Assembly: GCA_026706385.1 (NCBI GenBank)
Contig: JAPOYV010000086.1
Coordinates: 17,985-57,984, forward strand
Length of the DNA: 40,000 bases
From: Gammaproteobacteria bacterium
GTDB taxonomy: Bacteria; Pseudomonadota; Gammaproteobacteria; Pseudomonadales; Azotimanducaceae
Reading direction: 5' to 3'
Of the stretch, positions 3,980 through 31,321 are shown in pieces. The position numbers and the translations under genes are program-made. How positions within the stretch are numbered: position 1 is the first letter of the stretch; each line of letters starts with the position of its first letter. Below the pieces are notes generated by a model. The model worked only from the letters and a program-made list of their open reading frames with translations, did no database searches and was not told where the DNA came from.

Positions 3980-4028
3980 GGCTGCTCCGCATCGTTGGTG
4001 TCGGCACCTTAATGTACTCGTAATGGTT

Positions 4029-4086: not shown

Positions 4087-4131
4087 GGGCGCGATTTGCG
4101 TACAATCGGTGTTGAACCGAGGCAATGCGCC

Positions 4132-13754: not shown

Positions 13755-16700
13755 CTAGCGGCTCCCCGCGCGTTCGAAGATCATGATCCCGCGCGGCGCG
13801 GACGCATAGATGTGACGCCCGTCCGGCGTCGCCGCCAAGCCACGGTCGAAGCTGAAATACGGCAGATTGTTGTCGAACGCGTCGACGCCACCGGGATTCA
13901 GCAGTTCCTCTTGACGCAAGCTCGGGTCGCCGGGCATGAGTCGCCGAGCGAGCGCGAGGTCACGGCACAGGACGTCGACCGTCATCGTCCGCTGGCGGGT
14001 ATCGGCGAACGCGCACACCGGTTCGCCGAAGCCAATGAAGGAAGACCGGTCGTCTACGACGATGAAGGGATCGAACTCGGGCTCGACGCCCGCGCTCTGA
14101 GCGATCAGGGCTGGCGCCGTGGGATCGGCGAGGTCGAATGCGGCGACCCCGCGTTCCTCGGTCACCCCGAAGAGGTAGCGCCCAGACCGTTCAGCGAGCA
14201 GCAGCGTCAACGGCACGTCCATCGACGCGTGCGCGCTGATCGGCGCCAGTGCCCCGGTGGCCACATCCCGCAGAAAGACCTGCAGCGCCTGCTCGGTCGC
14301 CACGTAGAGGAACTCGTCCGTACCACCGAGCGCCGCCGCAGTAACGCCGAAGATCGGGACGCCGCCCACCAGTTCGACCGCGGTGCGCTCCTCGTTGAAG
14401 CGCAACGTCACGATGCCGAATGCGCCGACGAAGTGCACGAAGGTGCCGCTTGCGTCGCGCAAAACCGTCCCCGGCGGTAGCTCGCCGGCGATGCAGGGGA
14501 CGACGCCCGCGATTTCCATTCCCTCGTCAAGCCCGGCACCGGCTTCGTCCGTTGCGAACTTGCGAACGCCCGAGCAGGCGACGGCGATGACTGCCGAACC
14601 GTGCGTATCCCAGAACAGCACTGCGCTGTCGTCAACCCCGTCCAGGGTCTGCATGTGGCTCAGTGCGCCAGTGCCCGCGCGTCGCGAATAGACCTGCAGC
14701 CCGGATTCCGTTGCGACGTACAACTCGCTGCCGTCGTCGTTGAGCGCGATGCTGTCCGGCGATGCGAGATCGAGGATGCTGCCGCCCGGATCGAAATCGC
14801 CGTCCGCCACCGCCCCCGCATACTTGAGCCAGGTCGGCGACCCGTTCGGTGCCCAACTCAGCGCGAACTCACCGCCTCTCGCAGTCCCGTCCGTGCCCAC
14901 GCGAAGAGCGTAGCGCTCGCCGGCTTCTGCACGGAATATCAGGATGGGATCCGGCAAACGGCGGCTGACGGCAACGGGTTCGGGCGCCAAGGTGCCGTCC
15001 GAATGGATCTCGAACGCAGACACGACGCTGGCGCCAAACCGGTCCGCGAGCGCAACCCGGTACCACCGGGATTCCGGGACGTCCCAAGTCCACCACACCG
15101 ACGAGTCGCCGAGCAGCCCCACGGGCTCGCCAGCCGAGACCGTGGCGAAGAGATTCGAGCCGACGACCGTTCCGGAGACACCAGCCATGGCACCGGCCGA
15201 CGCCAGTTCGTCGTTGGACGGCGTCGGCCCCCACTCGAAGCTGATCGGCCCGGGGATCGTCGGGACGAAACCCTGGTCGATCGGCAACCCCGCCGAGATC
15301 AGGTACTGCCGACCGGCAACGGCGTCGAAGGAAACCAACTGCTCGGTCTGGCGGTCACCGGAACTCTCGCCCAAGGCGACAAGGCGGTCGCCGACCTCGA
15401 CGATCGACAGCGCCAACGTCTCGTCGAACAGCGCCGCGGCACGCCACGTGTAGCGGCTGGTGAGCGGTGCTCGCCATGTCCACCACGCCGTCCTGACGCC
15501 GCTTTCGATCGGCTCGCCCGGTTCGACCGTGGCCGATGACAGGTCCGCGAGTCCGAAATGGAAGAAGGCGGGCGCCCCGAACATGGGTTCCGCGTTGGCG
15601 ATGTCGTCGTTGGAGCCGAAATCGCGCTGCTCTGGACCCCACGTCAGGATGTAGTCGCTGCCGGAGGTGTACGCGCTGTGCGCCGCGACCGCGATGGTGT
15701 AGGCCTCCCCAGCACGCGCCGGGAAAACGGCCGCGTCGCCCGGCTCTCCCGAGACCAGCCGCAGTTGGTCCACCGCGTCGCCCGTGAACGCCGTCACGTT
15801 CAGGTGGCGGCGGTCGACGCGGAAGCCGTAGTCGCCGTCGGCGGGCGCCGTCCACCGGTGCCAAGTGCTCGCCGCCATGGGCTGCAGCCGTTCGCCGACT
15901 TGCTCGGTTGCGCTCAAGTTGCTGCCAGCATACTCGCCGCTCTCGCCGCCAAGCTCCGTGGCGAGTTCGAAGTTGTCGTTGGCCGGTAGCGACGCGCGCT
16001 GCCAATGCAGCGACAACGGCACCACCGGGCGGCGGCGGATCGGACCCTCGCCGGCCGCGCCGTATTCGAACAACTGCGCTCGCGTCACAGCGAGCCGGAC
16101 GGCGTAGGTCTGACCGCGGCGCGCGGCGAACGTCAGTCCGCCACCGAACTTCGCCGCGATGTGCTCGAGGTCCGACATGCCGAGCCCGTGCGCTTCGAAG
16201 ACGTCCAACTGGATGTCGTCGCCGATGCCCTCGCCCGAGCCGGGAATGGCAAAGCGGACCAAGTCGGTCGTGGGCGCCTTCCAGCGATACCACAGCGAAC
16301 GTGGGCGGCGCTGACTCTGGTACCGGCCATAGTCGTCCAGCAAGCCTTGCGTGAACGCCGGTTCGCCGGGCTCGGGCGTGGCCAGGATCAGATCGAAGTC
16401 GAGGCTTCCTGCATCGCCGGCCAACTCCGTGGCCGCGGCGAAGTGGTCGTTAGCCGGCGGTGTGGTGGCAGGAGTGGCCGGGACGTCGGATGAGCCGATC
16501 GCGACGTCGACCGATGCCGAGGCCGAGGTCGCATTCCAGGCCGAGGCGGTGAGGAAGAGGCGGAACCGCGCGGCCGACGGCAACTGCTTGAATACCAGCT
16601 TGACGGTCTGTTGCTCGCCCACCGCGACCTCGCCGAGCGCAATGGCGTCGCCGGATTCGCCCGCCAAGGTCCGGTTCACGGCATCTTCGCGCAAAGCACC

Positions 16701-19172
16701 GCTCGCCTTGGGCGCTAGCAACTCGACCCGCTCGCAGATCTCGGCATCGCCGCGGCAGTCCACGCGCAGCATGGTCCCAGCCGCAACGTAGCCGTCGGTG
16801 GTCACCGTGGCTTCGACCTCGAAGGGCTTACCCGGCTCCGCCGCGACGGCGGCGTTCGTGCCGACGGCGAGTAGTGGCGTAGAAGGCCCGCGGATCACCG
16901 TCCAAGCCAACGCGGCACGCGGCGTGTCGGTGCGCGCGTACTTCGGTACCACCTTGAGCCGGTACGTGCCCGGCAGGGGATCGCGGAGAATCAGCCACTC
17001 GACGTTGTCCTTGGTCGACCGGGACGCGGCGTTGCCGCACGCGGCCGGCTGCGACGGCGCGCAATCCGCGTCGCGATCGACCCAAAGGTCGAGGTCGTTG
17101 ACCACCGTCGAGGCCAACGTGTCGGCCGGCTGCTCGTCCCACGTCATCACGATGTCCAGTCGGCTGGCTCCTGCCGGAACCTCGATGTCGCGGTAGCCGT
17201 ACTCGTCGTCCCCGACCTCGATGACCGCGGCGCCGCCGAACCAGCCGTCGGCCTCGTCGCGATTCAACACGCTGGTGCGTGCCGAGACCTTGCCGAGACC
17301 ATAGCGGTGCTGCAGCGGTCCGGGGCCATCGCTATTGTGCAGCGGGAACTGGGTCACATCGTCCAGGAACGCATCCGGGCGGATCGCGCTGGCCATCAGC
17401 CTGGCACGCACCGCGGCCGGCTGTTCGCGGTATTCCGGCGCCGCATCCATCAACAGCGCGGCCACGCCGGCAACCGCGGGCGACGACATGCTGGTGCCGT
17501 TGAACCGCACGTAGCCCGACCGCCTGCCTTCGCCGCGGGGCGAGTCGATGCTCACACCCGTCCCCACCACCTGCGGCTTCAGGCGGCCATCCGCAGTTGG
17601 GCCATGGCTGCTGAAACTGGCGAGATCGCCGCCGTCCTCGACGGCACCGACGGCGAGCGAGTTCTTGGCGCTCGCGTAGTCGCTGTACGAGATGAAGCCG
17701 CCATTGGACTGCGATACGACGTAGAGCTGGCGGTTGTTCCAGACAGTCGCGTCGAGCTTGCGCTCGGTCGCGCTCTTGCCGTCCCACTCGGGGAAGTTCC
17801 GGCTCAAGCTCATGTTGACCACGAGCGGGCGAACGGCAGGCGTCGTGGCCGGGCCGCAGGTGCTCTGCTCCGCCATGAAGTCCATGCCCCGCATGATGCC
17901 GACCAGCGAACCGGTACCAAACGTGGTCAACACCTTGGCGAAGCGGATGTCCTGGACCAGCGGGGCCACACCGGCGTGTTGCGGTCCCCCGGTCCCGTTG
18001 CCGGCCAGCGTGCCCGTCACGTGGGTACCGTGCAGACCGGCATCGACCCACAGATCCTGATCCTCCTCACGGTCAAAGAAGGAGAAAAAGGTGGCGAAAT
18101 TCGCCCCGCAGATGCTTCGTCGGCCCGTGCCGATGTCCTCGTGGCGGATGTTCAGACCCGAATCCATCACCCCGATCGGCACCGATCCGCCGCCGATCCC
18201 GGAGAAGAGGCCCGTGCCGCTTTCGTACGTCCGCAAGGCATCCGCGCCCATGGCCGGCACCGCCGAGGCGTGACTCGCCTTGACCAGACCGACCGGCTCG
18301 ACGGCGAGCACGAAGTCGGCGGCCGCAACAGTGTCGAGAACGGCCACCGGAAAGTTGGCGGGATAGACGCGGATACTCGGGTCGAAGCGGCCCACCACGC
18401 CCCCCAAGTCGGTCAACGCCTGTCGGAAACGTCCGTCGGGATCGTCGTCCATCAAGGTGACGAACGTCGGCACCAGGCCATCCACGGCCCGGAAGCCCGC
18501 ATTCTGGTCGCTTGGCTCGAAGAGCTTGGCCGGGAGCGGCGTCGGGCCTAAGCCAGCGACGCCCGGAATCGCAGCGATCTCTTCGAGGCGCGCGATGTCG
18601 CCCGGCAAACGCGTCCGCAGCAGGGTCCCCGATGCACCGAGGACCTCTGCGCCCGCCGCGCTCAAGCGCCCGATCAACGCGGCCCGGTCGGTATCGGCGT
18701 TGATGGCAACCCAGCCGAAGGTCCAATCGCGGCCTGCCGCCATGGCTTGGCCGGCTAGACCGCGCGCGCCGGTCCCGGTGTCCAGCCAGGGTTGATCGGC
18801 AATGGGATCCGGGGGCGGGGCGACATCGAGTGGCGTCATTCGCGCGGTGGACATCTCGCCGTGGAACGCGGTGAACTCGAAGCCGTCGGGTGGGTTCGAT
18901 TCCACGCTCGAATGAGCACCCGGAACAAAACCAGGCGGCGCTTCAACCGGTTCGATTGCGTCGCGAGAGGCAACGTCGCCCGTGCTCTCTGCCGCGATTT
19001 GCGCGACGGCGGCCGCAGTAGCCTCAAGCGCGACGTCAGCGGTCTCCGCCGGTTCACGGTCATCGGTATCGGGACTCGAGCCCGGCGCCGTCGTGGTCAC
19101 CCACCACGCCGCGACAAGCGCCACGACGCCGATCGAACCAATGCCGCACGCGACCTTTGACGCCTTGTTCAT
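13755..19172 (-). CDS. Giant secreted subtilisin-like serine protease (peptidase S8) with 4 tandem NDxF/WxWxAP modules and a C-terminal beta-propeller
   Basis: Start MNKASKVACGIGSIGVVALVAAWWV (ATG 19172) has AAGGAG 7 nt upstream. Catalytic triad motifs are GVMDSGLN (Asp), HGTHVTGTLAG (His) and NGTSMSSPAVAGVAALL (Ser). Four modules of 123-157 aa follow, then lactonase-like propeller blades (DGSELYVATESGLQVYS, DEFLYVATEQALQVFL, DGRHIYASAPRGIMIFE). Confidence 0.9.
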   Translation of the reverse strand: MNKASKVACGIGSIGVVALVAAWWVTTTAPGSSPDTDDREPAETADVALEATAAAVAQIAAESTGDVASRDAIEPVEAPPGFVPGAHSSVESNPPDGFEFTAFHGEMSTARMTPLDVAPPPDPIADQPWLDTGTGARGLAGQAMAAGRDWTFGWVAINADTDRAALIGRLSAAGAEVLGASGTLLRTRLPGDIARLEEIAAIPGVAGLGPTPLPAKLFEPSDQNAGFRAVDGLVPTFVTLMDDDPDGRFRQALTDLGGVVGRFDPSIRVYPANFPVAVLDTVAAADFVLAVEPVGLVKASHASAVPAMGADALRTYESGTGLFSGIGGGSVPIGVMDSGLNIRHEDIGTGRRSICGANFATFFSFFDREEDQDLWVDAGLHGTHVTGTLAGNGTGGPQHAGVAPLVQDIRFAKVLTTFGTGSLVGIMRGMDFMAEQSTCGPATTPAVRPLVVNMSLSRNFPEWDGKSATERKLDATVWNNRQLYVVSQSNGGFISYSDYASAKNSLAVGAVEDGGDLASFSSHGPTADGRLKPQVVGTGVSIDSPRGEGRRSGYVRFNGTSMSSPAVAGVAALLMDAAPEYREQPAAVRARLMASAIRPDAFLDDVTQFPLHNSDGPGPLQHRYGLGKVSARTSVLNRDEADGWFGGAAVIEVGDDEYGYRDIEVPAGASRLDIVMTWDEQPADTLASTVVNDLDLWVDRDADCAPSQPAACGNAASRSTKDNVEWLILRDPLPGTYRLKVVPKYARTDTPRAALAWTVIRGPSTPLLAVGTNAAVAAEPGKPFEVEATVTTDGYVAAGTMLRVDCRGDAEICERVELLAPKASGALREDAVNRTLAGESGDAIALGEVAVGEQQTVKLVFKQLPSAARFRLFLTASAWNATSASASVDVAIGSSDVPATPATTPPANDHFAAATELAGDAGSLDFDLILATPEPGEPAFTQGLLDDYGRYQSQRRPRSLWYRWKAPTTDLVRFAIPGSGEGIGDDIQLDVFEAHGLGMSDLEHIAAKFGGGLTFAARRGQTYAVRLAVTRAQLFEYGAAGEGPIRRRPVVPLSLHWQRASLPANDNFELATELGGESGEYAGSNLSATEQVGERLQPMAASTWHRWTAPADGDYGFRVDRRHLNVTAFTGDAVDQLRLVSGEPGDAAVFPARAGEAYTIAVAAHSAYTSGSDYILTWGPEQRDFGSNDDIANAEPMFGAPAFFHFGLADLSSATVEPGEPIESGVRTAWWTWRAPLTSRYTWRAAALFDETLALSIVEVGDRLVALGESSGDRQTEQLVSFDAVAGRQYLISAGLPIDQGFVPTIPGPISFEWGPTPSNDELASAGAMAGVSGTVVGSNLFATVSAGEPVGLLGDSSVWWTWDVPESRWYRVALADRFGASVVSAFEIHSDGTLAPEPVAVSRRLPDPILIFRAEAGERYALRVGTDGTARGGEFALSWAPNGSPTWLKYAGAVADGDFDPGGSILDLASPDSIALNDDGSELYVATESGLQVYSRRAGTGALSHMQTLDGVDDSAVLFWDTHGSAVIAVACSGVRKFATDEAGAGLDEGMEIAGVVPCIAGELPPGTVLRDASGTFVHFVGAFGIVTLRFNEERTAVELVGGVPIFGVTAAALGGTDEFLYVATEQALQVFLRDVATGALAPISAHASMDVPLTLLLAERSGRYLFGVTEERGVAAFDLADPTAPALIAQSAGVEPEFDPFIVVDDRSSFIGFGEPVCAFADTRQRTMTVDVLCRDLALARRLMPGDPSLRQEELLNPGGVDAFDNNLPYFSFDRGLAATPDGRHIYASAPRGIMIFERAGSR

Positions 19173-19283
19173 CGAGCAACTCCTTGCGGACTGTGTGGAC
19201 GGACCTATCGAACGCGGATGTGGAGAGGAGTACTTGCTTGTCCTAGCCATTCGATAAGACAAAAAAGTTAATTTAAACAAGCA

Positions 19284-19289
19284 ATTATA
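19284..19289 (-). promoter_or_regulatory. Perfect TATAAT (-10) on the minus strand inside an AT-rich tract upstream of the S8 protease gene
   Basis: Plus-strand attata (19284-19289) is TATAAT on the minus strand. It lies about 110 nt upstream of ATG 19172 within aaaaaagttaatttaaacaagcaattatag. The best -35 candidate, TGAACA (19314..19309), has a 19-nt spacer and lies inside the inverted-repeat region. Confidence 0.35.
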
Positions 19290-19296
19290 GTTCGTT

Positions 19297-19309
19297 CCGC
19301 TAATCCGCT
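19297..19309. repeat. Inverted repeat, left core
   Basis: ccgctaatccgct is a CCGCT pentamer doublet and the exact reverse complement of 20627-20639. Confidence 0.9.
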
Positions 19310-19332
19310 GTTCAGGAAACTATCACGGCCTT

Positions 19333-20436
19333 TCAGGCCCGCGCAAGCGCTTTTTGCGCTTTTTTGTCGGCTCTTCTGTCAGCCTTTCTCGCGCGTTTCG
19401 CGTCCTTGCGCCGGCGCTTCCATTCCCGTCTCGTGACGCCCGACTCGCACAGTAGCGCCGACATCGTCGCGCGGCGGCGCAGCGACAGCGAAACCGCGCC
19501 GTATCGCAGGCAAGCGACCGCCCCGCTCGCGGCGTCCTGCTCGCGCGTGTAGCGCGCCACCGTGTCAGCCCGCGTCCAGCGTCCCGCCGCCATCAGGTCC
19601 ACGATCGTCGCGCCGGCAGCACGCAACGACTGCGCGGCCCCCACCCGCAGCGAGTGTCCGGACACGCGCCCGCCGATCCCTGCGTTCTCGGCGCACCGTT
19701 TGACGATGCTCCGCACGCTACGCACTGTCAGCCGCGTGTCGGCAGCGCGCCCGGCCTTGTTCACCGGGCGGAACAGGGGCCCGTCCGTGATGTCCGCCAC
19801 CTTCAGCCATCGACGTGCCAGCCGCGCCGTCTCCTCGCCGGCGTAGAACACGACGCCCCGTCCCTCCTGGTCCGTCTTGCTGCGCCGCACGTACACGCGC
19901 AGCCAGCCGTCGGCGAAGGCGATGTCCGACACGTCGAGGGCCACGGCCTCGGCCCCGCGCAGCAGACAGTCCGACATGATCCGGACCAGCAGCGCGTCGC
20001 GCAGACCGCCCGTGCCGCGTTGTTCCGCCAGTTCCGCCATGCGGTCCGCCTGCTCCCAGGAAATGCCCTCGACCTGCCCGAGCCCGCGGCCCGCCCCGGC
20101 GCGCCGGTAGCCGCACAGCGTCTGCCGCGTCCGCTCGCCCGCCGGACATGCGACGCCCGTCCGTCTGGCCCGGTCCTTCAGGGCCGCGACGACGGCCTCT
20201 GCGGAGGCGGCTGCGAGACCCCTGTCGAACAACACGCCGAGGTAGTTTGCCAGCGCCGTGTCGGTCTCGCGCTCGCTCCCGCGCCAGTCGTCGAATGCCC
20301 GCGCGGCGCGGTCGTAGGCATCGCGCGTGCTCTGCTCAAGTGCCTTTTCGGCGAGGTACGTCGCCGTGTCGTGGGCGTTGCTGTCGATGGTGTAGCTGCT
20401 GTCTGCGGGCCACTCGGCCCCGACGAAATCCGCCAT
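19333..20436 (-). CDS. Tyrosine site-specific recombinase (Cre/XerD-like) with a Lys/Arg-rich C-terminal tail
   Basis: Start MADFVGAEW (ATG 20436) has AAGGA 5-6 nt upstream. Catalytic boxes are LLRGAEAVAL (Arg), GHSLRVGAAQ (HxxR) and GRWTRADTVARYTRE (Tyr), which resemble Cre GHSARVGAA...W...NY. The tail reads TRREWKRRRKDAKRARKADRRADKKAQKALARA. Confidence 0.85.
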   Translation of the reverse strand: MADFVGAEWPADSSYTIDSNAHDTATYLAEKALEQSTRDAYDRAARAFDDWRGSERETDTALANYLGVLFDRGLAAASAEAVVAALKDRARRTGVACPAGERTRQTLCGYRRAGAGRGLGQVEGISWEQADRMAELAEQRGTGGLRDALLVRIMSDCLLRGAEAVALDVSDIAFADGWLRVYVRRSKTDQEGRGVVFYAGEETARLARRWLKVADITDGPLFRPVNKAGRAADTRLTVRSVRSIVKRCAENAGIGGRVSGHSLRVGAAQSLRAAGATIVDLMAAGRWTRADTVARYTREQDAASGAVACLRYGAVSLSLRRRATMSALLCESGVTRREWKRRRKDAKRARKADRRADKKAQKALARA

Positions 20437-20626
20437 GTCGTTCCTTCTCGTTCGTTTGTACCACCGATGCACGGGTCGCCTTGGCCGAACGGCAGGCCGG
20501 ATTCCGGCCATCGGCATTGTGCGTACGTATTCGCACGTATCCGAACGGAATGCAACGGGCGGCTGCGCTGCCGGGGGCTCGTCGCCGGGCCGGCCGCCCG
20601 TCTCCTAGTCGGATTGGTTCCCCTGA

Positions 20627-20639
20627 AGCGGATTAGCGG
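20627..20639. repeat. Inverted repeat, right core
   Basis: agcggattagcgg is the exact reverse complement of 19297-19309. Confidence 0.9.
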
Positions 20640-20787
20640 GAGCTACAGCTCCGACACCGTCGAGGTTGGAGTCAATGCCGCTTTCTTGGGCACTGGCGTA
20701 GCTGCGCGCGACGCAAACCGGTCGGTTCGAACCGGCCCTAACGGTACGGAAGCGGCCACCCAAACAGGTCGCAAAAGGAGAAATGAC

Positions 20788-21279
20788 ATGCGAGAGCGCA
20801 ACCGAGGACGAATACGCTTGGCAGCGGGGTTCGTTTACATGGCGGTATTCGGGCTTTTCGGATCACCATCTGCCCCGTTAGTGGGCGGCATTGCGACGGT
20901 TGGACAGGACGCCGCCGCAGACGAACGTCCGACCATGTATGGCGACCCGTATTGCGAGCTTTTGCCCGATGGCTGCTATGACTACTACCAGGACAGTGAT
21001 GGTGATGGCTTCCGGGACGAGCAGGATGGCTGCCCCTTCGAGTACGGGACGAACGGGGGTTGCCCGAATCCACCCTCCAACCCGCAAGACGACTGTACCT
21101 CCGCTGCGAACATGTGGATGGCCGGCGGAACTGCGGTAGCGGGCGCGGGTGCGATGTCCTTGATGGCTCCTACGACGACCGCAGGCGACGGGCTGGCCGG
21201 TCTCGCTGCAGTAGGTGTAGGAACGGCGGCGGCCACGGCTGGGGCGCTGACTTACTTCGCGTGCATTATCATATTCTAG
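20788..21279 (+). CDS. Small secreted/membrane-anchored Cys-rich protein with a thrombospondin type-3-like Ca-binding repeat and a Gly/Ala-zipper C-terminus
   Basis: AAGGAG lies 7 nt upstream of ATG 20788. The protein has an N-terminal signal/anchor (RIRLAAGFVYMAVFGLFG) and DSDGDGFRDEQDGCP, which fits DxDxDGxxDxxDxCP. It has six Cys and ends in the hydrophobic tail AGGTAVAGAGAMSLMAP...AGLAAVGVGTAAATAGALTYFACIIIF. Confidence 0.6.
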   Translation: MRERNRGRIRLAAGFVYMAVFGLFGSPSAPLVGGIATVGQDAAADERPTMYGDPYCELLPDGCYDYYQDSDGDGFRDEQDGCPFEYGTNGGCPNPPSNPQDDCTSAANMWMAGGTAVAGAGAMSLMAPTTTAGDGLAGLAAVGVGTAAATAGALTYFACIIIF

Positions 21280-21280
21280 T

Positions 21281-21484
21281 GTGGAAAACGGGAGTTGGCT
21301 GGTGACAGGCGCACTGTTGGCTACGTCCATCTTGTTCGCCGCGGGCGTTAGCGTTTATGCCGCCCAGCGGTGGCTGTCAGCACATCGGCCCGAGCGGAAA
21401 CGCACGTTCTGGTGGGCATTCTCGGTCGGGGCCGCGGGTTCCGCCATCGGACTGAGTGCGCTCATAGCCTACATGGTCACGTAG
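21281..21484 (+). CDS. Two-TM miniprotein (67 aa)
   Basis: A GTG start lies 1 nt after the preceding TAG. The two hydrophobic helices are LVTGALLATSILFAAGVSVYA and FWWAFSVGAAGSAIGLSALIAYMV. The exact start is uncertain. Confidence 0.4.
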   Translation: MENGSWLVTGALLATSILFAAGVSVYAAQRWLSAHRPERKRTFWWAFSVGAAGSAIGLSALIAYMVT

Positions 21485-21714
21485 GCATCTCGGCGGTTGT
21501 TCCTCGCCGGTCTGGGTAGAGCCGCGCACGCCGGGCACAGAGAATCGCTGTCGGACGAGATGGCGGGGTGCCTCTCTGGAAACTCGTGCGCGGCTCAACA
21601 ACGGTCGTGCCGAGGACACTAGGCAGTGTCAATCCGTTTCTGACAGTCGAGGTTGGCGACCGTGGCGAGCCGCCGGCGTCCACCCAAACGCGTCGCCGAC
21701 GGAGTCTGGTCCGG

Positions 21715-24700
21715 ATGCATGGTGCGCTTCGAGGCTGGTTAGCTATTGGAAAGGCCGAACTCCGGTCGTCGGGCCGGTTGACCCGGACTTGGCTGTTTGT
21801 GCTGGCTGGTGTCGCCGCCGGGTTTCTGGGCCATGTTGGTCTAACGGTCTTTCACGCATTCTCGTCCGGTCAGTCTCCATCTCTTGGCCTGCTCCGGCCG
21901 CGATTCGTGAGCGGTGAAGGCGGGACGTTCCTACTAAGACTGTTCGTTGTTGCCCTGGTCTTTCTCGCATTCGACGTCCGCGTGCGGGATCAAAGGGCTC
22001 GGATAGTCGACGCCATAGACTCTCGACCCTTCGGCAATCTGGCTCTCTTAACCGGGCGATGTGCCGCCCTCGTACTTTTGGCGTGGCTGCCGATGGCGCT
22101 TCTGGTTTGCCTGTGCGAGATGTTCGGTGTCGCGGCTGAGCACCTTGGTCTGCCGTTCGGTGAACGCCTAGACTTTGACTCAACAGCGGCGTTGCTCCTG
22201 GTCGACGCGCCGGCCATGCTCATGATTTGGTGCGCGCTGGTTTTCTTGCTCTCGGTTGCGCTCCAAAACAGAGCGGTAGCTGCGACCGCTGCCTTGGCCT
22301 TACTTGCTGCCCATTGGTGGGCGCTGTCGGTGCTACCTAGCCATCTTTTGGTCGCGTTCTCTGGGACAGTGGGGTCAACGGCGATGCCGTCTGACATGGT
22401 ACCGGCCTCTGCTACCGCGCGTGATCTGACGCAGCGCTTGGGCCAACTAGTGCTCGCTGTTGGATTCCTGATCGTCGCAGCCGTTTGCCATCCGCGTCCC
22501 GACGACGTGTCCCCGGGTCGTCGGTTGGTCGTGGGTTCCACCCTAGTGGCGACCGGCGCTACGATCATCGGCCTTTTGGCCTGGCTAGCCACCGAGGATC
22601 TGGCAAGACGCGAAAGTTGGCGTAGCGTCCACGAAAGACGGACTGGCGAGCCGCTGCCGGATGTCGAGCGAGTAGAAGGCCGAGTGTTGGTGGATCCAGG
22701 TGTACGTCTCGGACTCGATCTGCGCTACCAACTGCGGGCGAAAGACCAGCCCTTGACCGAGTTGGTAATGACTTTCAATCCCTCGATGCGAGTGGTCGGC
22801 CTTACAGTTGATGGTCAAGTTGCGCAGTACTCACACAGGTCGGGTGCCTTGGACGTGGAACTACAGGAGACTCTCAGGCCAGGAGATGGTCTAACATTGG
22901 GGTTACGCGCGGAGGGAGTCCCGGCCCCGGACTTTGGCTATCTGGATAGCCCAATCGACGTGGCGCGTCTCCCGGGAACGTCAAGTCGCCTGAGACTGTT
23001 GGGCAGCCGGGTTGGAGTGTTCACTGACGAATACGTCGCGCTCATGCCCGGAATGCATTGGCTGCCGACGGTCGGCGCCGCGGTACCCGTGGATGGTCGA
23101 AACACCCGCGGCCCAGACTTTTTCGTCCTAGACCTCGAGGTGCGGACGCCCAAGGAGTGGCGCGTTGCCGGTCCTGGTCGCCGCGAGGGCACAGCAGGCC
23201 GTTTTCGATTCCGGCCCCAGGCGCCGTTGTCGGCGGTGGCGTTGCTGGCGGCACAGTTTGAGCGTCGGACAACAGACATCCAAGGAGTAGAGCTGGAACT
23301 CTTGAGCCTGGCGAACCAGAGACGCAACATCCTGTTGTTCGCCGACGCTTTCGCCAGCTTGCGCGACTACGCAGAGCGTGTCCTGCGGGAGGCGAACTCG
23401 CACGGTCTCCCCTTTCCGTACGGCGGCTTGAGCATCGTGACCGTGCCCGCGGAACTGCGAGCTTTCGGTGGGGGGTGGCGAATGGCCTCTGTGCAGTCGC
23501 TGCCAGGAATCCTTCTGCTACGCGAATACGGCTTTCCATCGTCCCGGTTCGAGATGCTGTTTGCCAACCATGATCGTCCATCTGGCGACACTCGGTCACA
23601 AGCAGTCAAAACAGCAGCTTTGAAACGATATTTCAGCAATGACATCTCCGGCGGAAACCTCCATGCGGGGGCAATGCGCAACCTGTTCTCGTTCCAAACG
23701 CGTGCCGTTGGGGAAGGTGCCTTGGCGTTGAGTTTCGTGCTGGATGAGCTTGTACAAAGAATGCTCACAGCGTCGGGCGATAGTTATTACTCGCCGTTCG
23801 CGCTGGCCGAGAGCGGGAGTTCTATCTTGGCCCGCGCATTCGCCGACGCGTCCGGTGCTGGCGGTGCGGTCGCCTCGAATGCTAAGGCGACCGCGATTGG
23901 CCGCACTGCCGTGTGGGAACGAGCACGTGAGACGCCATTGGCCTCACTCGACCCGACCGTTGATCCGCAAACCGTTCTGGACGTCCTCTGGCTCAAGGGC
24001 CCGACCTTGGCTCAGTCCATTCTGGACGCATGTGGCGACGAAGTCGTTGGTCGCACACTGGCTCAGTTACTCAACCGTTACCGGGGACGGACGTTCACGG
24101 TAGAGGACTTCTTATCCGTCGCATCTGAACAAGGCATGGACTTGGAGTCAGCCGTTGGCGACTGGTTGCACCAGACGGGCTTGCCCGGATTCAGCGCGTC
24201 AGTGCCGTCGGTTGCGCGTATCCGCGACCGTGTAGACGGATCGCCCCAGTTTCAGTCACGCATTCACGTTCGGAACGCCGAACGAACGCCTGGGGTCATA
24301 CGGCTGCGGGCCCTCGTGCACGGGTCTGAGGGGAGCCGGACGGTCTCCCGGTGGACGGATCCCAAGCTGGTCGGTGGGGGAGATTCAGTAGAGATTGGAC
24401 TGGTGACCGCGCGGCCGCCCGAGGAACTGTGGCTGCACCCAGTCCTCTCGCTCAATCGCAGGCCATTCAGGGTGCATACGCCCCGCGCTCGCGTATACGT
24501 ACACTCTTCCGACAGGCCATTTCGGGGCTCGCGACCAAGCGATTGGGTGCCGCCGGCAATGCCGGGAGTGGTAGTCGACGATTTGGACAGTGGATTCGCG
24601 ATAGTAGATGTGAGCCTGCGCCGACGGCGGCTCGGCGAAACGCTCAGGCCCAACTCCCTGGAGGGCGAACCAGTGACTCGTTTTCCTGCCTACTGGGAAC

Positions 24701-25101
24701 TCGTGGACAACCAGTCGGCCTGGTTGCGCCGCGAGTCACCGGATGCCTACGGTGTGTACCGTCGCACAACGGTCGTCTCGCAGATGGCAAACGGCAAGGC
24801 GATGGCCGTATTCTCAGCCTCACTCCCGCACGAAGGTCGATGGCGGCTAGCCTACTACTTGCCCCTGTCGGGTATGACGAGCAATCGTCGTGACCGTCTT
24901 GGCTTGTACGACATGCGCGTTACTGCAGATGGATTGGATGTGCCCGTTGAGTTCGACGCCGGAGCGGGGTCGGCGGGCTGGAACGACCTTGGTACCTTCG
25001 ACCTTGAGGCTGGCAACGTGCAACTGTTGGTCTCTGATCAGTCAACGGGTAGCGTCGTCTTGGCCGACGCGATTCGGTGGACCCCTGAGAGGGCGGAGTA
25101 G
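21715..25101 (+). CDS. Polytopic membrane (ABC-2 permease-like) / M1 aminopeptidase-like (HExxH-less) / golvesin-C-like fusion protein, 1128 aa
   Basis: Start chosen at MHGALRGWLAIGKAELRSS (ATG 21715; an upstream GTG at 21568 is possible). Seven to eight TM helices come first. An M1 N-domain-like segment follows (VERVEGRVLVDPGVRLGLDLRYQL...ELVMTFNPSMRVVGLTVDG). A catalytic-domain-like core ends in FTVEDFLSVASEQGMDLESAVGDWLHQTGLPGF. The C-terminus reads GWNDLGTFDLEAGNVQLLVSDQSTGSVVLADAIRW. There is no HExxH anywhere in the protein. Confidence 0.6.
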   Translation: MHGALRGWLAIGKAELRSSGRLTRTWLFVLAGVAAGFLGHVGLTVFHAFSSGQSPSLGLLRPRFVSGEGGTFLLRLFVVALVFLAFDVRVRDQRARIVDAIDSRPFGNLALLTGRCAALVLLAWLPMALLVCLCEMFGVAAEHLGLPFGERLDFDSTAALLLVDAPAMLMIWCALVFLLSVALQNRAVAATAALALLAAHWWALSVLPSHLLVAFSGTVGSTAMPSDMVPASATARDLTQRLGQLVLAVGFLIVAAVCHPRPDDVSPGRRLVVGSTLVATGATIIGLLAWLATEDLARRESWRSVHERRTGEPLPDVERVEGRVLVDPGVRLGLDLRYQLRAKDQPLTELVMTFNPSMRVVGLTVDGQVAQYSHRSGALDVELQETLRPGDGLTLGLRAEGVPAPDFGYLDSPIDVARLPGTSSRLRLLGSRVGVFTDEYVALMPGMHWLPTVGAAVPVDGRNTRGPDFFVLDLEVRTPKEWRVAGPGRREGTAGRFRFRPQAPLSAVALLAAQFERRTTDIQGVELELLSLANQRRNILLFADAFASLRDYAERVLREANSHGLPFPYGGLSIVTVPAELRAFGGGWRMASVQSLPGILLLREYGFPSSRFEMLFANHDRPSGDTRSQAVKTAALKRYFSNDISGGNLHAGAMRNLFSFQTRAVGEGALALSFVLDELVQRMLTASGDSYYSPFALAESGSSILARAFADASGAGGAVASNAKATAIGRTAVWERARETPLASLDPTVDPQTVLDVLWLKGPTLAQSILDACGDEVVGRTLAQLLNRYRGRTFTVEDFLSVASEQGMDLESAVGDWLHQTGLPGFSASVPSVARIRDRVDGSPQFQSRIHVRNAERTPGVIRLRALVHGSEGSRTVSRWTDPKLVGGGDSVEIGLVTARPPEELWLHPVLSLNRRPFRVHTPRARVYVHSSDRPFRGSRPSDWVPPAMPGVVVDDLDSGFAIVDVSLRRRRLGETLRPNSLEGEPVTRFPAYWELVDNQSAWLRRESPDAYGVYRRTTVVSQMANGKAMAVFSASLPHEGRWRLAYYLPLSGMTSNRRDRLGLYDMRVTADGLDVPVEFDAGAGSAGWNDLGTFDLEAGNVQLLVSDQSTGSVVLADAIRWTPERAE

Positions 25102-25284
25102 CAGCCAAGTCAACGGGGACCGCCCCGCGCTTCCTCGGGACACGCGTCCTTGGCGCCTAGGACACCTCGCACGCCACATTCCGGATGACCGCGGCAACGC
25201 GGGGCCGATGTCGCACGGCAATCCGAGACATCGGCCAAGTGACACCGCCCGGTCGGACCACGACGATGCCCATGACCACCCCGA

Positions 25285-25560
25285 GACGACTGCCTCGTCG
25301 ACCCCGTCAACGCCTGCGACTACCACCTGGTGTCACGATGCGTGCAGGGCGCCTTTCTGTGCGCGCGACCCGCGCACCGGACGCGACCGCTCGCACCGCA
25401 GACAGTGGCTGGTGGACCACATCGAGCTGCTGAGATGCTGCTTCGCCGTCGAGGTCTACACCTACTGCATCATGAGCAACCACTTCCACCTAGTCGGCCG
25501 CCATGCCGGTGCCACGGTGGCCCGCCGACGTTGTCAATAGGCAGTCTCTGCGCCCCGACT
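25285..25560 (+). pseudogene. IS200-like / Y1 (COG1943-type) transposase, frameshifted 5' fragment
   Basis: Frame 1 reads DDCLVDPVNACDYHLVSRCVQGAFLCAR. Frame 2 continues DPRTGRDRSHRRQWLVDHIELLRCCFAVEVYTYCIMSNHFHLV (the YxxMxNHxHLV hallmark). The frameshift is in the gcgcgcg run 25361-25367. The gene is truncated after about 90 codons by a stop at 25538 and a further shift. Confidence 0.7.
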
Positions 25561-25883
25561 AGCATGCCGCCCCGGCTCAACCCCTGCCTTCCAGACACGC
25601 AGAATCGTGGTTGTGGACTCCTTGGGAGGTTTCCCGTCAAAGGCGAACGCGTTTACAACCAACGCTTCACGCTGAATGAGTTCGCGAGAGGCAAGGCTGG
25701 CTGGTACGTCTACGCCGCCATGGCGATGGCTGCGTGCGGTCTGCTATTCGCGTGTCTGGCGATGGTCGGCTGATAATCCCGAGCGCGCGCGACCCGGGAG
25801 TTCGGTCCGTTCCGATTGAGGTTCCCGGACACGCGACTCCGGCACGAACCGACCCAAAGGTCACGCACTTGCGCGGGGGACGG

Positions 25884-26123
25884 ATGATGCGCCGACAGAA
25901 TGCGGGCAGCACGGAGGCAGGCCGCGTTTACGTGTACTCGCTCCTAGTGCCGTTCCCGCTAGGTTTCATCGGGACACTCCTGATCGCGCAGCCGCTTGGC
26001 GACTACGCCGCGTTACTTGCATTGGGCGTTGGAGTCGTCGCGCAAGTCGCTGCGATCGGCATAACGCTGCATCGCTCGTCCAAGCCGAGGGTGACGCCAA
26101 AGTCTGGGAGCCTCGGTCCGTAG
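25884..26123 (+). CDS. Hypothetical two-TM miniprotein (79 aa)
   Basis: ATG 25884 follows GGGGGA. The sequence is MMRRQNAGSTEAGRVYVYSLLVPFPLGFIGTLLIAQPLGDYAALLALGVGVVAQVAAIGITL. The only support is hydrophobicity and an RBS-like motif. Confidence 0.3.
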   Translation: MMRRQNAGSTEAGRVYVYSLLVPFPLGFIGTLLIAQPLGDYAALLALGVGVVAQVAAIGITLHRSSKPRVTPKSGSLGP

Positions 26124-26385
26124 TGCGTCGACTTGGTGGCTGAGCGGCTCCCGGCCGAGCTTTCGTGGCCGCGAGGACGTTGCGCCCACGCTGCACACGT
26201 ACGTCGTGCAAGGCAACTGGAGCCGACCGAAAAAGGACTCGATCGGTGGCCTGCGACGCCGGCGCGACGAGGGGGTACGCGGCTCTGGGTGGACGCGTTC
26301 CTGCGGAGCAGGGCAAGGTCGTCGAGGAACGTAAGGCGAAGGCGCGCGCTCACGCCACACGTGAACGCACCGCCGCACCGCAGAC

Positions 26386-26429
26386 CCGGACATTTTCAGT
26401 TGTCAGAATCCGGCCATTTTCGGCTGACA
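26386..26429. repeat. Imperfect 20-nt direct repeat (24-nt period) ending in TGTCA/TGACA motifs
   Basis: ccggacattttcagttgtca (26386-26405) and ccggccattttcggctgaca (26410-26429) match at 16/20 positions, and ttgacag follows. Confidence 0.7.
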
Positions 26430-26645
26430 TTGACAGCGCGTCCCAAGCAGCTTTAGGTGCTCTTGCGGCAAGGGTCACTCAGCAGGCATCTGGCCTGCGC
26501 TCAGGCTGCTCTGGGTTCGCTCGCTGGTCTGAACGGCGTGGGCCGGGTATGGTTCGAGACGCGCCCGCCACGCGAGCACGCAGCGCTTTCGCGCGCAGGC
26601 TTTTCGTCTACTGAGGAGGACCGCTTGTGCGTCCGGTGAATCGGT

Positions 26646-27128
26646 TTGGTTGATGAACCCTCCCCACAAGCTTCCCCAACCGGGAAACTGCAATCCATCC
26701 GTACGTACCGGTCAGCACTGGGGCGGCGTGCCCTGTGGCGTTGCCTGCCATTCCTTTTGGTTGGCTTCGCGATGTCGGTGTTGCTGCTTCGCAACGCTGG
26801 CTTCGCCCTCATGGCAATCCAGATCGGCCTAGTCGCGCTGGCAGTCGCCATGCCATTGTGGTTGGTCTTCGGTACCTCCTACCGCGTCAGTGGCAGCACA
26901 TTGACGGTGACGATGGCCTTCAGGCGGGAGCGCATCCCGCTGGCCGAAATCACCGACATCAGACCGTCGTCGCAGAGGTCGATCTGGGCATGGCAACCCG
27001 GGGTCGACGATTTCGCATTGGGCACGCAGGTAGTCGAGATAGACTGGCGAGGCCGCTTGGTATTGGTTTCACCCGTTCGCCAGGGCGATTTCCTGGTGGC
27101 AATAGACACTCGGAACTCGGTCGGATAG
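26646..27128 (+). CDS. Bacterial PH-domain (bPH/YdbS-like) membrane protein
   Basis: The start is TTG. Two TM helices (LWRCLPFLLVGFAMSVLLL, ALMAIQIGLVALAVAMPLWLVF) are followed by YRVSGSTLTVTMAFRRERIPLAEITDIRP...VVEIDWRGRLVLVSPVRQGDFLVAI, the typical bPH topology. The start codon is uncertain. Confidence 0.55.
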   Translation: MVDEPSPQASPTGKLQSIRTYRSALGRRALWRCLPFLLVGFAMSVLLLRNAGFALMAIQIGLVALAVAMPLWLVFGTSYRVSGSTLTVTMAFRRERIPLAEITDIRPSSQRSIWAWQPGVDDFALGTQVVEIDWRGRLVLVSPVRQGDFLVAIDTRNSVG

Positions 27129-27438
27129 CTCGTCAACCCCGAGAACGCCTGCGACTACCACTTGGTGTCGCCATGCGTGCAGGGCTTGCCTTCTTCTGCG
27201 GCCGCGACCGCCGCCCTAGGCGCGGCCCACGCCGAGCTCGCTGAGCGCGCTCATGAAGCACCTCAAGCAGCCGATCGCGCGGCGCGGCGCCCAGTTCGCT
27301 GCTCAGTACGACCCTGGGAGTTCGCGGTTGCGTTGGCGTTTTGGGTACGCTGATGGCCAGCAACATGCCCCGCCGAGTAGAGGGAGGATCGAGGCTACGC
27401 AAAGGGTGCACACGCGTTCCACGTCCTACAGCGCCTAG
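27129..27438 (+). pseudogene. Second, internally deleted IS200-like/Y1 transposase remnant
   Basis: LVNPENACDYHLVSPCVQG (27129-) shares about 85% nucleotide identity over about 80 nt with 25292-25370. It then jumps to MKHLKQPIARRG and a WE..RF-like block and ends at the same ...gcc tag context as 25153-25160. A partial tandem duplicate of the cctgggagtt...ggcgttttgggta block lies at 27476-27525. Confidence 0.6.
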
Positions 27439-27559
27439 GACACCTCGCACGACGCGTCGCGTCGACGTTGTCGCTCCCTGGGAGTTGGCTCTCAAGTTGG
27501 CGTTTTAGGTATGCTGGTCTGCAACGCTCCGTATCGCGCCGAACAGGGAAGTACTAGGC

Positions 27560-27805
27560 TTGCCGTTGAAACCGACCCTCGTAGCCAGCGGAGTCGCGCT
27601 ATGCCTAGTGGCTACCGTCTACGCGGTAGCGCGGCCCGACTTTGGCGGCGAGCGGTTCCTCATCATGACGTTCGCGGCGGCTTGGTTGGCTGGCGCCGCC
27701 TTCATCGACACGTATCGCTGGTTGAAGCGACGTCAGAGCACCGAGACGCGACAAAGGGGCGCAGACGAGCCCCACCAACCGGTCAAGGAGCTTGGATGCC
27801 CTTGA
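27560..27805 (+). CDS. Hypothetical two-TM miniprotein (81 aa)
   Basis: The start is TTG. Hydrophobic helices are LVASGVALCLVATVYAV and FLIMTFAAAWLAGAAFI. Tiny hydrophobic ORFs follow at 27796-27906 (36 aa) and 27961-28062 (33 aa). Support is weak. Confidence 0.3.
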   Translation: MPLKPTLVASGVALCLVATVYAVARPDFGGERFLIMTFAAAWLAGAAFIDTYRWLKRRQSTETRQRGADEPHQPVKELGCP

Positions 27806-28182
27806 TTCTTGCTATGTTGAACGAGCTGAGTTCAGGCTGGCGCAGCCGCATTGTCTGGTTCGGTGTGAGCATGGCAATCGTAGGCTTCGTCGTCCTCTAT
27901 GCCTGATCGGGGCACTGGAAAGGTGCGACTGGGGACACGGCGTATCCGGAGCCGACGGAAATGACGATGACGTTCGGCCAGAGGCACGGTGTGCTCGGAA
28001 TCGTCCTTGGCGTGCTTGGAATGACGATGGCAGCGATCGCGTTGGCCCGGAGCGGGCTCTAAGCCGCCTTCCCAGTCCGTGTGACCCGAACACCGAATGG
28101 TCAACCGCACCGATCGCTTGACAGGGCGACGGACTGCGAAAGAGCATCTTCGACTCCTCGAGCCAACCTTCGGAGAAGGACG

Positions 28183-30073: not shown

Positions 30074-30085
30074 CGCCCCACGCGG

Positions 30086-31321
30086 TCACCGCTCGACGTC
30101 CCGGGCGACGAGCCCGGGCCACTTCCAGGCGGCAACCGCCAGCGCGACCAAGCCTTCGAAGGCGATGATCGTGCACGCCGCACTGGCACCGACCCAGCCG
30201 GCCAGCAGGCCGAGGTGAGCGAATCCCAAGGGCCCGCTGCCGATGCACACCGACAGGAGTCCCATCATCCGCTGCCGGCTCGCCTGCGGCGCGTTCAAGA
30301 GAACAAGCGTGCTCTGCATCGCCGCGAACGCGGCCAGCGACAGGCCGAGCGCGACCAGCAACCCCCCGGACAGCACGGCGCTCTCCGAGTTCGCAAAGCC
30401 CATGGCCGCGACGAGGTAGACCGCCACGCCGAAGAAGTACAGGTGGCGGAACTGGCCCCGCCGCGCAAAGGCGGCCAACAGGAACGCGCCGAGCAGCGAA
30501 CCAAGCCCTTCCATGCTGGCCAATACGCCGATCTGGAAGGGCGCAAGCCGAAGTTGGTCTGCACCGATCACCGGCACCATCGAGATCACCGGGAAGCCCC
30601 AGACGTTGAACACCACGGTCGTGGCCAGCACGCCCTGGAGGACCGGCTGGCCGCGCAGCTCTCGCAATGCGCCGCGGATTCGGCCGATGGCCTGGCCGGA
30701 GACTTCGGCGACGGAAGCCGCGACGCCCTTGAGCCCGAGCAGTAGGCCGAACGCTAGCACGTACGCCGTCGCCGTCAGCACGAAAGCGCCGTCCATGCCG
30801 GCCACGGCGTACAGCGTGCCGCCGAGAACCGGGCCAAGCACCCGCGTTCCGGAACTGGCCACCGTGTCCAAGCTCATGGCCGCCCCGAGCCTGGCCTGCC
30901 CGGCGATGTCCGCCAGCAAGGTTCGGCGCACGGGGAAGTCGAGCACCCAGGCCAGCCCGGCGATGAAAGCGCCAAGGGCAACGTGCCAGACGGCGAGTCG
31001 ACCGAAGGCCGCGAGCCCCGCCAATGCGCCGGCCAACGCAGCCAAGGCTGCGAATGTGGTCAGGAGGACGCGTCTGCGGTCGAAGCGGCCGGCAATCTCG
31101 CCGCCGTAGAGCCCGAACAGGGCGAGCGGCAGCATGCGCAGCATGAGCATCGCCGCCACGAGCGTCGGCGAGCCGGTCTCTTCGAACACGAAGATGCCGA
31201 CGGCCAGCATCTCGAGCCAACGGGCCGTCGCCGTGCACGCCCCCACCAGCCACAGACGTAGGAATTGCGCGTCGGCCAGCAGCGGACGCGCCGGACGCGC
31301 CGTTGAACCGCCATTGGTCAA
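30086..31321 (-). CDS. MFS transporter (12 TM)
   Basis: 411-aa ORF of hydrophobic repeats with an N-terminal FLRLWLVGACTATARWLEMLAVGIFVFEETGS typical of MFS_3/EntS-like exporters. The start appears to be TTG. Confidence 0.8.
   Translation of the reverse strand: MTNGGSTARPARPLLADAQFLRLWLVGACTATARWLEMLAVGIFVFEETGSPTLVAAMLMLRMLPLALFGLYGGEIAGRFDRRRVLLTTFAALAALAGALAGLAAFGRLAVWHVALGAFIAGLAWVLDFPVRRTLLADIAGQARLGAAMSLDTVASSGTRVLGPVLGGTLYAVAGMDGAFVLTATAYVLAFGLLLGLKGVAASVAEVSGQAIGRIRGALRELRGQPVLQGVLATTVVFNVWGFPVISMVPVIGADQLRLAPFQIGVLASMEGLGSLLGAFLLAAFARRGQFRHLYFFGVAVYLVAAMGFANSESAVLSGGLLVALGLSLAAFAAMQSTLVLLNAPQASRQRMMGLLSVCIGSGPLGFAHLGLLAGWVGASAACTIIAFEGLVALAVAAWKWPGLVARDVER

Follow-up and report, generated by a model that had tools for sequence, protein, structure and literature searches.

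What does a recombinase gene do when it lies between two inverted copies of what appears to be its own target? The question is raised by a 40,000-nt stretch of DNA from Gammaproteobacteria bacterium (GCA_026706385.1, contig JAPOYV010000086.1, positions 17,985-57,984 of the forward strand), referred to here as the window. An initial annotation had noted in it a tyrosine recombinase gene framed by inverted repeats and had offered two readings of this unit, an invertible switch and a mobile unit bounded by inverted repeats. We found that the repeats are functional-looking recombination sites which, judging by their sequence, probably belong to the recombinase. Relatives were collected by a scan of one genome per species, which gave at least 555 loci with homologues, and 80 of them were examined (designated L and a number); additional loci were obtained by exact-protein look-ups. 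The two sites and the gene are placed in the window as follows.

19293-19320, minus strand: 3′ lox-like site; on the plus strand, outer arm CGTTCCGCTAA (19293-19303), centre TCCGCT (19304-19309) and inner arm GTTCAGGAAAC (19310-19320)
19333-20436, minus strand: Cre-like tyrosine recombinase gene, 367 aa, stop codon at 19333-19335, PF00589 at 1.1e-18
20437-20615, minus strand: leader between start codon and 5′ site, with a block GATACGTGTGAATACGTACGCAC conserved among orthologous loci; presumed promoter region
20616-20643, plus strand: 5′ lox-like site; inner arm GGTTCCCCTGA (20616-20626), centre AGCGGA (20627-20632) and outer arm TTAGCGGGAGC (20633-20643)

The perfect 13-nt inverted repeat that had been annotated was recovered at both positions, as CCGCTAATCCGCT at 19297-19309 on the plus strand and as its reverse complement at 20627-20639. 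The imperfect similarity described on both sides of it was also found, extending the repeat to 28 nt with 75% complementarity, and the 40-kb window contained no further match to CCGCTAATCCGCT with up to two mismatches allowed. A perfect 13-nt repeat between the two intergenic segments flanking the recombinase gene occurred by chance in 3 of 2000 shuffles. With the repeat conserved around 25 further homologous genes, a chance origin need not be considered. Alignment of both ends of many units showed that the two repeat arms belong to complete core-type sites, composed of an 11-bp arm, a 6-bp asymmetric centre AGCGGA and a second 11-bp arm, the arms within a site being inverted copies of each other. 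The letters of the CCGCT doublet first seen in each core were thus correct, but they call for another parsing: the 6-bp centre and the greater part of the outer arm of an 11-6-11 site account for them better.

Across units, the inner arm follows the consensus GGTTCC(G/T)(C/G)AA(A/C), the centre is AGCGGA and the outer arm is TT(T/C/A)GCGGAACC; 26 units had the consensus target GGTTCCGCAAA-AGCGGA-TTTGCGGAACC at either end of the gene. Read in gene orientation, the 3′ site of the window is GTTTCCTGAAC-AGCGGA-TTAGCGGAACG, and the 5′ site is inverted relative to it. A position-weight matrix trained on 34 sites and applied to the entire window scored the 3′ site at 57.7 and the 5′ site at 34.4, with all else at 12 or below; the 5′ site has a degenerate outer arm in the window and in L021. 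Equally possible is a parsing into arms of about 13 bp and an 8-bp spacer, A-AGCGGA-T, which would be the expectation for a Cre-type enzyme since loxP consists of 13-bp arms around an 8-bp spacer (PMC10250229).

The recombinase gene is the sole gene between the two sites, without a second protein-coding gene in the unit, in agreement with the single Cre/XerD-like recombinase of the initial annotation. Its closest solved relative is Cre: in a comparison of the family profile with the Protein Data Bank (PDB), Cre was matched with an E-value of 1e-28 and XerD with merely 4e-4. The resemblance to Cre covers both domains, and Cre from P1-like Escherichia coli plasmids was matched at about 30% identity, while the NCBIfam Xer models gave 41-54 bits against cut-offs of 220-335. 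Residues R146, K187, H261, R264, W287 and Y296 align with Cre R173, K201, H289, R292, W315 and Y324 and are invariant in the alignment and profile of 25 homologs; the C-terminus carries a basic tail that is extra relative to Cre. By its sequence the enzyme is a Cre-type tyrosine recombinase. It is under purifying selection, with ratios of nonsynonymous to synonymous substitution (dN/dS) of 0.32-0.38 against orthologous copies and dS of up to 0.96.

Gene and sites are closely fitted. The inner 3′ arm contains the gene's stop codon in most relatives (GGTTCCTGAAC), and the gene thus fills the space between the sites except for a 179-nt leader. The window gene has acquired a premature TGA which drops the last seven ancestral codons, KAVIVS* being still in frame at 19312-19332. 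The same TGA is found in the window, L021, L081 and L103, where it replaces the codon preceding the last seven ancestral residues (EKAVIVS), and the old C-terminus reads into the 3′ inner arm. Separately, the L021 recombinase gene shifts frame at about 4594 (4590-4600), through a frameshift or an assembly error, in a locus that is otherwise collinear with the window.

We then asked whether homologous recombinases are flanked in the same way, a check that the initial annotation had proposed, and found that they are: at least 36 units have the bracketed architecture, 26 in subfamily 1 and 10 in subfamily 2. The recombinases of the 26 distinct units of subfamily 1 are 52-100% identical to that of the window, and in 26/26 the sites are present at both ends, 1.23-1.42 kb apart and in inverted orientation. 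The centre is identical at both ends in every one of these units, being AGCGGA in 24 of them and, at either end alike, TGCGGA in L099 and CGCGGA in L102, whose arms are also altered symmetrically. As the centres co-vary within units, the two ends must stay compatible, and mutual recombination is the simplest explanation. In subfamily 2 (ten units, protein about 48% identical) a different repeat, GGTTAACTCGCGTTAACC, stands at both ends, 1.16-1.20 kb apart. Compared with shuffles, the flanking repeats reached z = 6-9 for the two subfamilies; for homologs at 37-51% identity from other phyla z stayed below 2.5, and no inverted repeat flanking them was significant. Two subfamilies thus have the bracketed architecture, and the family as a whole does not.

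The hosts are metagenome-assembled genomes of Gammaproteobacteria and Pseudomonadales, many of them from sponge samples as judged by record names. Units lie on chromosomal contigs of up to 7.4 Mb and occur several times per genome, with 7 copies in OY762824.1 and 4 in OZ220737.1 at unrelated loci and with 75-98% nucleotide identity. Many homologs are found on contigs of 1-3 kb. No relative was found in a viral contig collection, and a search of JGI metagenomes by site pattern matched only 7 loci. One of these, L090, has a 5′ site and a truncated recombinase gene. Three others, L091 (4808-4898), L094 (6930-7020) and L096 (7892-7982), carry look-alikes of the site, two tandem copies of TCCTGAAA AGCGGA TTAGCGGAAAA 63 nt apart, on unrelated AT-rich contigs without a recombinase homolog nearby.

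Several further observations concern copies and their surroundings. L090, a 5.2-kb contig from a sponge metagenome, has identical 123-nt ends (1-124 and 5041-5163) with a 5′ site; either the contig is circular or a repeat has been collapsed. On it lie two small secreted-protein genes, a gene for an rve-type transposase and a recombinase gene that breaks off after about 85 codons. In L015 (100-190), an inverted partial site directly adjoins the 5′ site at its outer arm (GGATTTGCGGAACC-TTCCGCAAATCC) in a palindromic junction, with the contig end 150 nt off. In OY762824.1, where five of the seven units fall within 5.13-5.46 Mb, a family of repeats about 257 nt long, with identities of up to 99%, clusters around units (L003: 1038-1293, 1637-1897, 1902-2076 and 5318-5574; L079: 2450-2710; L001: 2416-2645). 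Shorter homologs in L019, L020, L024, L026-L028, L030, L034, L038, L042 and L059 (gene at about 3978-4853), about 48% identical and without the C-terminal tail, are present in 6-8 copies per genome in unclassified ‘bacterium’ genomes. In this last group the open reading frame (ORF) is the only part common to all copies; their flanks are mosaic, their 5′ ends alternative, and no inverted repeat was detectable.

The two ends of the unit are not equivalent, owing to a flank found beside the 3′ site.

19248-19292, minus strand: AT-rich flank outside the 3′ site, 78% A+T, with a motif AAACAAGCAATTA at 19275-19287 resembling a binding site of integration host factor (IHF), one mismatch from WATCAANNNNTTR

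The IHF consensus is WATCAANNNNTTR. Among 23 units typed for orientation by their flanks, the 45 nt outside the 3′ site were AT-rich (56-78% A+T) in 19, and 15 carried the IHF-like YAANNNNTTGATW, complement of that consensus, at a fixed distance of 5-6 nt from the arm. On the 5′ side the flank is GC-rich, and one of the AT-rich, IHF-like type was beside the 5′ end of the gene in 0/23. The 3′ flanks of L007 and L011, which are 93% identical inside the unit, are unalignable and yet both contain the motif; it is therefore selected or reflects a target preference, and was not inherited with the unit. For the conserved TTGATAT motif in this flank we tentatively favour the reading as an IHF site because a CAA lies at the right distance, the other readings being an outward extended -10 or an inward -10 element.

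On either side of the unit, genes read outward from it and encode signal-peptide proteins.

13755-19175, minus strand: S8 protease gene (PF00082), secreted, 1805 aa, downstream of the 3′ site and on the same strand as the recombinase gene
20788-25101, plus strand: divergent cargo genes beyond the 5′ site, for a 163-aa signal-peptide protein (20788-21279) and a 1128-aa Golvesin_C protein (21715-25101)

The recombinase gene is indeed aimed at the protease gene, as first described, with the protease start codon (19175) 157 nt downstream of it. From the recombinase stop to the protease start, the minus strand showed no terminator-like hairpin, so that read-through from one gene into the other is possible. 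Starting at 20788, the rightward cargo has a GC content of 0.59-0.65 against 0.67-0.73 for its surroundings, and its GC content at third codon positions (GC3) is also low. This bore out the account of low-GC rightward genes without a convincing sigma-70 promoter: between 19100 and 20900, the range inspected for promoters and terminators, no sigma-70 consensus promoter was found, for either flank or in the leader. Transfer RNAs (tRNAs) and known RNAs were likewise not found.

The small divergent neighbour proteins of the window (20788-21279) and of the L009, L007, L015 and L021 flanks share P-x-VGG-D-A after the signal peptide and, in addition, a thrombospondin-type-3-like DxDxDG..D..CP. Further right, the window contains pseudogene fragments of an IS200/Y1-type (HUH) transposase at 25143-25501 and 27128-27263, whose translation includes YCIMSNHFHLV, and a 21-nt exact repeat (25153-25173 and 27431-27451). 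Homologous IS200-like fragments with a terminal hairpin (GTCCTACGCGCTGTAGGAC) recur by the variable region in L021, L081, L085, L086 and L103. We considered an integron-like cassette array for the right-hand repeats at 25.1-27.5 kb and rejected it, as these are the transposase pseudogene fragments and the window holds no third site. The S9 prolyl-oligopeptidase gene at 28063-30073 apparently runs in three frames (28063-29037, 28203-29483 and 29360-30073), possibly through frameshifts or assembly errors, and this region is 93.6% identical to L021:1-1416.

The history of the locus was examined by comparison of seven orthologous S8 loci and, for a second unit, of two metalloprotease loci orthologous to each other. 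The order unit, S8 protease gene, CcmF gene is kept in 7 genomes (the window, L021, L081, L085, L086, L103 and L017), in identical orientation, with protease identity down to 56% and with both sites conserved. A second unit, with both flanks conserved, lies upstream of a gene for an 1883-aa reprolysin/FG-GAP protein in 2 genomes (L007 and L101). L087, whose protease is 67% identical, has the order DUF5990, major facilitator superfamily (MFS) gene, 163 nt, S8, CcmF, with neither a unit nor an AT-rich stretch in the MFS-S8 gap (L087:3837-4001). In the window, about 10.9 kb (19176-30085) separate the MFS gene (30086-31321) from the protease gene, the far portion being the S9 peptidase gene, which is an ordinary high-GC3 gene.

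In L021, L085, L086 and L103, homology with the window stops at 20641-20645, that is, at the outer edge of the 5′ site; the L081 alignment stops earlier, at 20559, though its 5′ site is present. Beyond the 5′ site, every related genome has different small ORFs reading away from the unit, many with signal peptides and some sharing N-terminal motifs, and segment 20642-25143 is specific to the window and absent from related genomes. Between the paralogs L007 and L011, about 93% identity gives way to unalignable sequence exactly at the outer edge of the 3′ site. The 5′ boundary between paralogs is variable and lies 39-520 nt outside the 5′ site; the 5′ flank at the metalloprotease locus is stable. 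Target-site duplications were not found, nor were flanking direct repeats among the units checked, and no precise empty site was seen among the loci examined, where the sole unit-free locus, L087, is too diverged to define ends. Accordingly, the proposal of a mobile unit bounded by inverted repeats has support in the multicopy occurrence of the unit and in the stop of homology at the outer edges of the sites, and lacks a precise empty site and a target-site duplication.

Two loci depart from the usual layout. L103 carries at 790-1789 a truncated second unit, in which a 5′ site is accompanied by some 920 nt of the gene, at 91% identity to the window, 2.8 kb upstream of a complete unit at 3569-4870. 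Both copies are co-oriented, so that their two 5′ sites form direct repeats around IS200-like fragments and two small genes. In L004 (5084-5160) a GC-rich flank of the 5′ type is found on both sides of the unit, giving an inverted repeat of about 65 nt, and a small secreted-protein gene lies beside the 3′ site. Such an arrangement is what would be expected from recombination of the 3′ site of one unit with the 5′ site of a different one.

How, then, might the unit work? The reading that we favour, tentatively and as a possibility rather than a probability, is a strongly biased self-inverting Cre/lox cassette, which might redirect transcription into flanking secreted-protein genes. It starts from what is directly observed: the sites, their conservation, their pairing and the intact catalytic set. 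The long-term maintenance of the unit upstream of the S8 protease in 7 genomes and of the reprolysin-like protein in 2 genomes speaks for it, as do the one-sided IHF-like motif, the missing terminator ahead of the protease gene, the lack of a consensus promoter for either flank and the outward-reading signal-peptide genes on both sides. In Cre-type enzymes, the asymmetric centre sets the orientation of a site. Inverted sites on one molecule result in inversion, not in excision, as established for Cre/loxP (PMC10250229). By the same chemistry, four recombinase monomers would synapse both sites, strands would be exchanged within the centre, and the 1.3-kb segment would invert rather than be excised. 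The reaction would be strongly biased toward the present orientation, perhaps by the IHF-like accessory site beside the 3′ site only. A flip in a minority of cells could send the transcription that leaves the terminator-less recombinase gene into the divergent secreted-protein genes and no longer into the S8 protease gene, much as the initial annotation had proposed. In genomes with several copies, flanks or cassette interiors could be swapped through these sites. The predicted flipped junctions in the window are ...TAGTTCGTTCCGCTAATCCGCTTCAGGGGAACCAATCCGAC... and ...GTGATAGTTTCCTGAACAGCGGATTAGCGGGAGCTACAGC..., the left one being expected to read ...AATTATAGTTCGTTCCGCTAATCCGCTTCAGGGGAACCAATCCGACTAGG... 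and the right one ...GGCCGTGATAGTTTCCTGAACAGCGGATTAGCGGGAGCTACAGCTCC....

Several results weigh against such a cassette. No opposite orientation was found in the 7 S8 loci, the 2 metalloprotease loci or the 23 flank-typed units. A simple equilibrium predicts that about half of the units are flipped, and with 0/23 seen, inversion, if any, is rare or strongly biased; an unregulated flip-flop or a free Cre-like equilibrium is excluded, and bias has to be assumed. Of the invertible switch originally suggested, the inverted sites belonging to the recombinase thus stand, and a second orientation does not. In subfamily 2, an internal promoter is without room because the start codon is about 25 nt inside the 5′ site, and in the window the inversion segment is likewise one in which no promoter match was identified. 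In several units the genes downstream of the 3′ site are unrelated housekeeping or transposase genes (transposase, oxidoreductase, aminotransferase), and a general protease-versus-cargo toggle is therefore not supported. Finally, inversion leaves the multiplication of copies unexplained.

That multiplication is what a lox-bounded mobile cassette would account for, a minimal selfish element consisting of the gene and its two terminal sites and spreading through recombinase-mediated exchange or pseudo-site integration. We consider it rather unlikely. It fits the several diverged copies at unrelated loci of one genome (7 in OY762824.1 and 4 in OZ220737.1, 75-98% identical), the sharp homology edges at the 3′ site between paralogs (L007/L011) and at the 5′ site between orthologs, the many homologs on 1-3 kb contigs, as with repeats, and the related genome in which the orthologous MFS-S8-CcmF locus is without a unit. 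On the other hand, from Cre chemistry, inverted centres would preclude conservative excision to a circle; target-site duplications and a precise empty site are missing, the left boundary among paralogs wanders (39-520 nt beyond the 5′ site), and no copy was found on viral contigs. Moreover, intact copies stay at one locus across species, with dS of up to about 1 and under purifying selection, which is unusual for a selfish insertion.

The variable DNA beyond the 5′ site would find its explanation in a fixed recombination platform, where the cassette is static and its sites, chiefly the 5′ site, dock, excise or exchange other DNA and so create a hypervariable region of small secreted-protein genes. 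Six related genomes all differ beyond the 5′ outer arm, with distinct small signal-peptide or membrane ORFs, segment 20642-25143 is found in the window only, and the cargo is lower in GC and GC3. The two direct 5′ sites of L103, 2.8 kb apart, could release a circle, and the 5′-type flank beside the 3′ site in L004 would be expected from recombination between units. However, no second site exists at the far end of the cargo, the window scan giving two sites only: a candidate decayed site at 25082-25102, at the far end of the window-specific cargo, had a score of 19, within noise, and was discarded. The window and L103 share an unusual outer arm and diverge right after it, which erosion up to a constrained site fits equally well, the 5′ flank at the metalloprotease locus is stable, and the inverted 3′ site is left without a role. 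Such a platform therefore appears unlikely. An ordinary genomic-island integrase, with repeats that are regulatory binding sites or due to chance, is highly improbable. The gene does lie at one end of the roughly 10.9 kb absent between the MFS and S8 genes in L087, and recombinases often bind sites close to their own promoters. There is, however, no tRNA and no pair of direct repeats bounding the segment, a full core-type site stands at both gene ends in 36 units with co-varying centres, and an S9 peptidase gene, ordinary and high in GC3, makes up the far part of the 10.9 kb.

Among known systems, those of the Cre type agree with the enzyme and its sites in most respects that were compared. 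With Cre/loxP of phage P1, Dre/rox, Vika/vox and the recombinases of PMC10250229, it shares the six catalytic residues and a short palindromic site with an asymmetric spacer beside the gene; as in Cre, there is no second protein-coding gene. It is closer to Cre than to other tyrosine recombinases. Known Cre-type systems nevertheless have a single site near the gene and reside on a phage or plasmid, where they serve circularisation or dimer resolution (PMC10250229, PMC8138268). Here, in contrast, two inverted sites bracket a chromosomal, multicopy gene, with an IHF-like motif by one site and an extra basic C-terminal tail on the protein.

A recombinase gene inside its own invertible region is known from the Hin segment, from the pneumococcal type I restriction locus (CreX/IvrR) and from FLP between inverted FRT repeats of the yeast 2-micron plasmid, all three sharing with our unit a recombinase gene between the inverted sites on which it acts. 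Hin is, however, a serine recombinase, whereas the present enzyme belongs to PF00589 with a tyrosine nucleophile; the pneumococcal repeats are part of hsdS coding sequences, where they shuffle protein domains; inversion by FLP serves to amplify plasmid copies; and none of them is a 1.3-kb multicopy chromosomal cassette. Fim-type switches (FimB/FimE, ipuS, Clostridioides difficile RecV) are similar in their tyrosine recombinase, inverted repeats, IHF-type accessory site, biased ground state and adjoining surface or secreted-protein genes. In these switches a short promoter element is what inverts, with the recombinase gene located outside it, and both orientations are readily seen (PMC6083910, PMC5386303, PMC5903667), while here the segment is the recombinase gene itself and the second orientation was not seen.

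The pdif modules of Acinetobacter plasmids are also short, bounded by oppositely oriented 11-6-11 Xer-type sites and found in varied contexts; they carry cargo genes and depend on the host XerC and XerD (PMC9771954, PMC9455709), whereas the sole content here is a Cre-like recombinase of the unit's own. RIT elements are multicopy tyrosine-recombinase elements with inverted-repeat ends as well, but consist of three consecutive recombinase genes and long repeats instead of one gene and 28-bp sites. An integron would have attI beside the integrase gene and an array of cassettes, each closed by a repeated recombination site, and there is no further site in the cargo or in the rest of the window. 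Against insertion sequences and transposons the comparison is mixed: the unit is multicopy and its 3′ edge is sharp between paralogs, its 5′ edge being variable between paralogs and sharp between orthologs. Unlike an island integrase, with direct repeats at the island ends and often a tRNA gene, it has two sites only, which are inverted, and no tRNA. The unit is thus not a member of the Hin, Fim, RIT, integron or Xer/dif groups, and the comparisons with Hin, Fim and RIT made in the initial annotation hold as analogies, not as membership, the enzyme being of the Cre type. In the literature searched, no Cre-type gene lying between inverted sites of its own was described, which is weak evidence as coverage was incomplete.

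The units could even be an undescribed class of minimal mobile or self-rearranging elements, with inverted lox-like sites as ends. Spreading through cassette exchange mediated by the recombinase or through recombination coupled to inversion, they would reshuffle the secreted-protein genes of sponge-associated Gammaproteobacteria and would supply natural orthogonal pairs of Cre-type enzyme and site; as a whole, we regard this broader proposal as doubtful. Should the cassette flip or exchange DNA, it would represent a compact and autonomous module for DNA rearrangement, of the Cre family and active in chromosomes, that is amplified in uncultured symbionts. Its neighbours, giant secreted proteases and small secreted proteins, are plausibly exposed to the host, and the way in which these genomes vary their secreted proteins would become concretely testable. 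PMC10250229 identifies the discovery of native target sites as the main bottleneck. Because each unit displays its target twice, this family offers new Cre-type recombinases with confidently predicted, mutually distinct sites, the predicted centres available being AGCGGA, TGCGGA, CGCGGA and CTCGCG.

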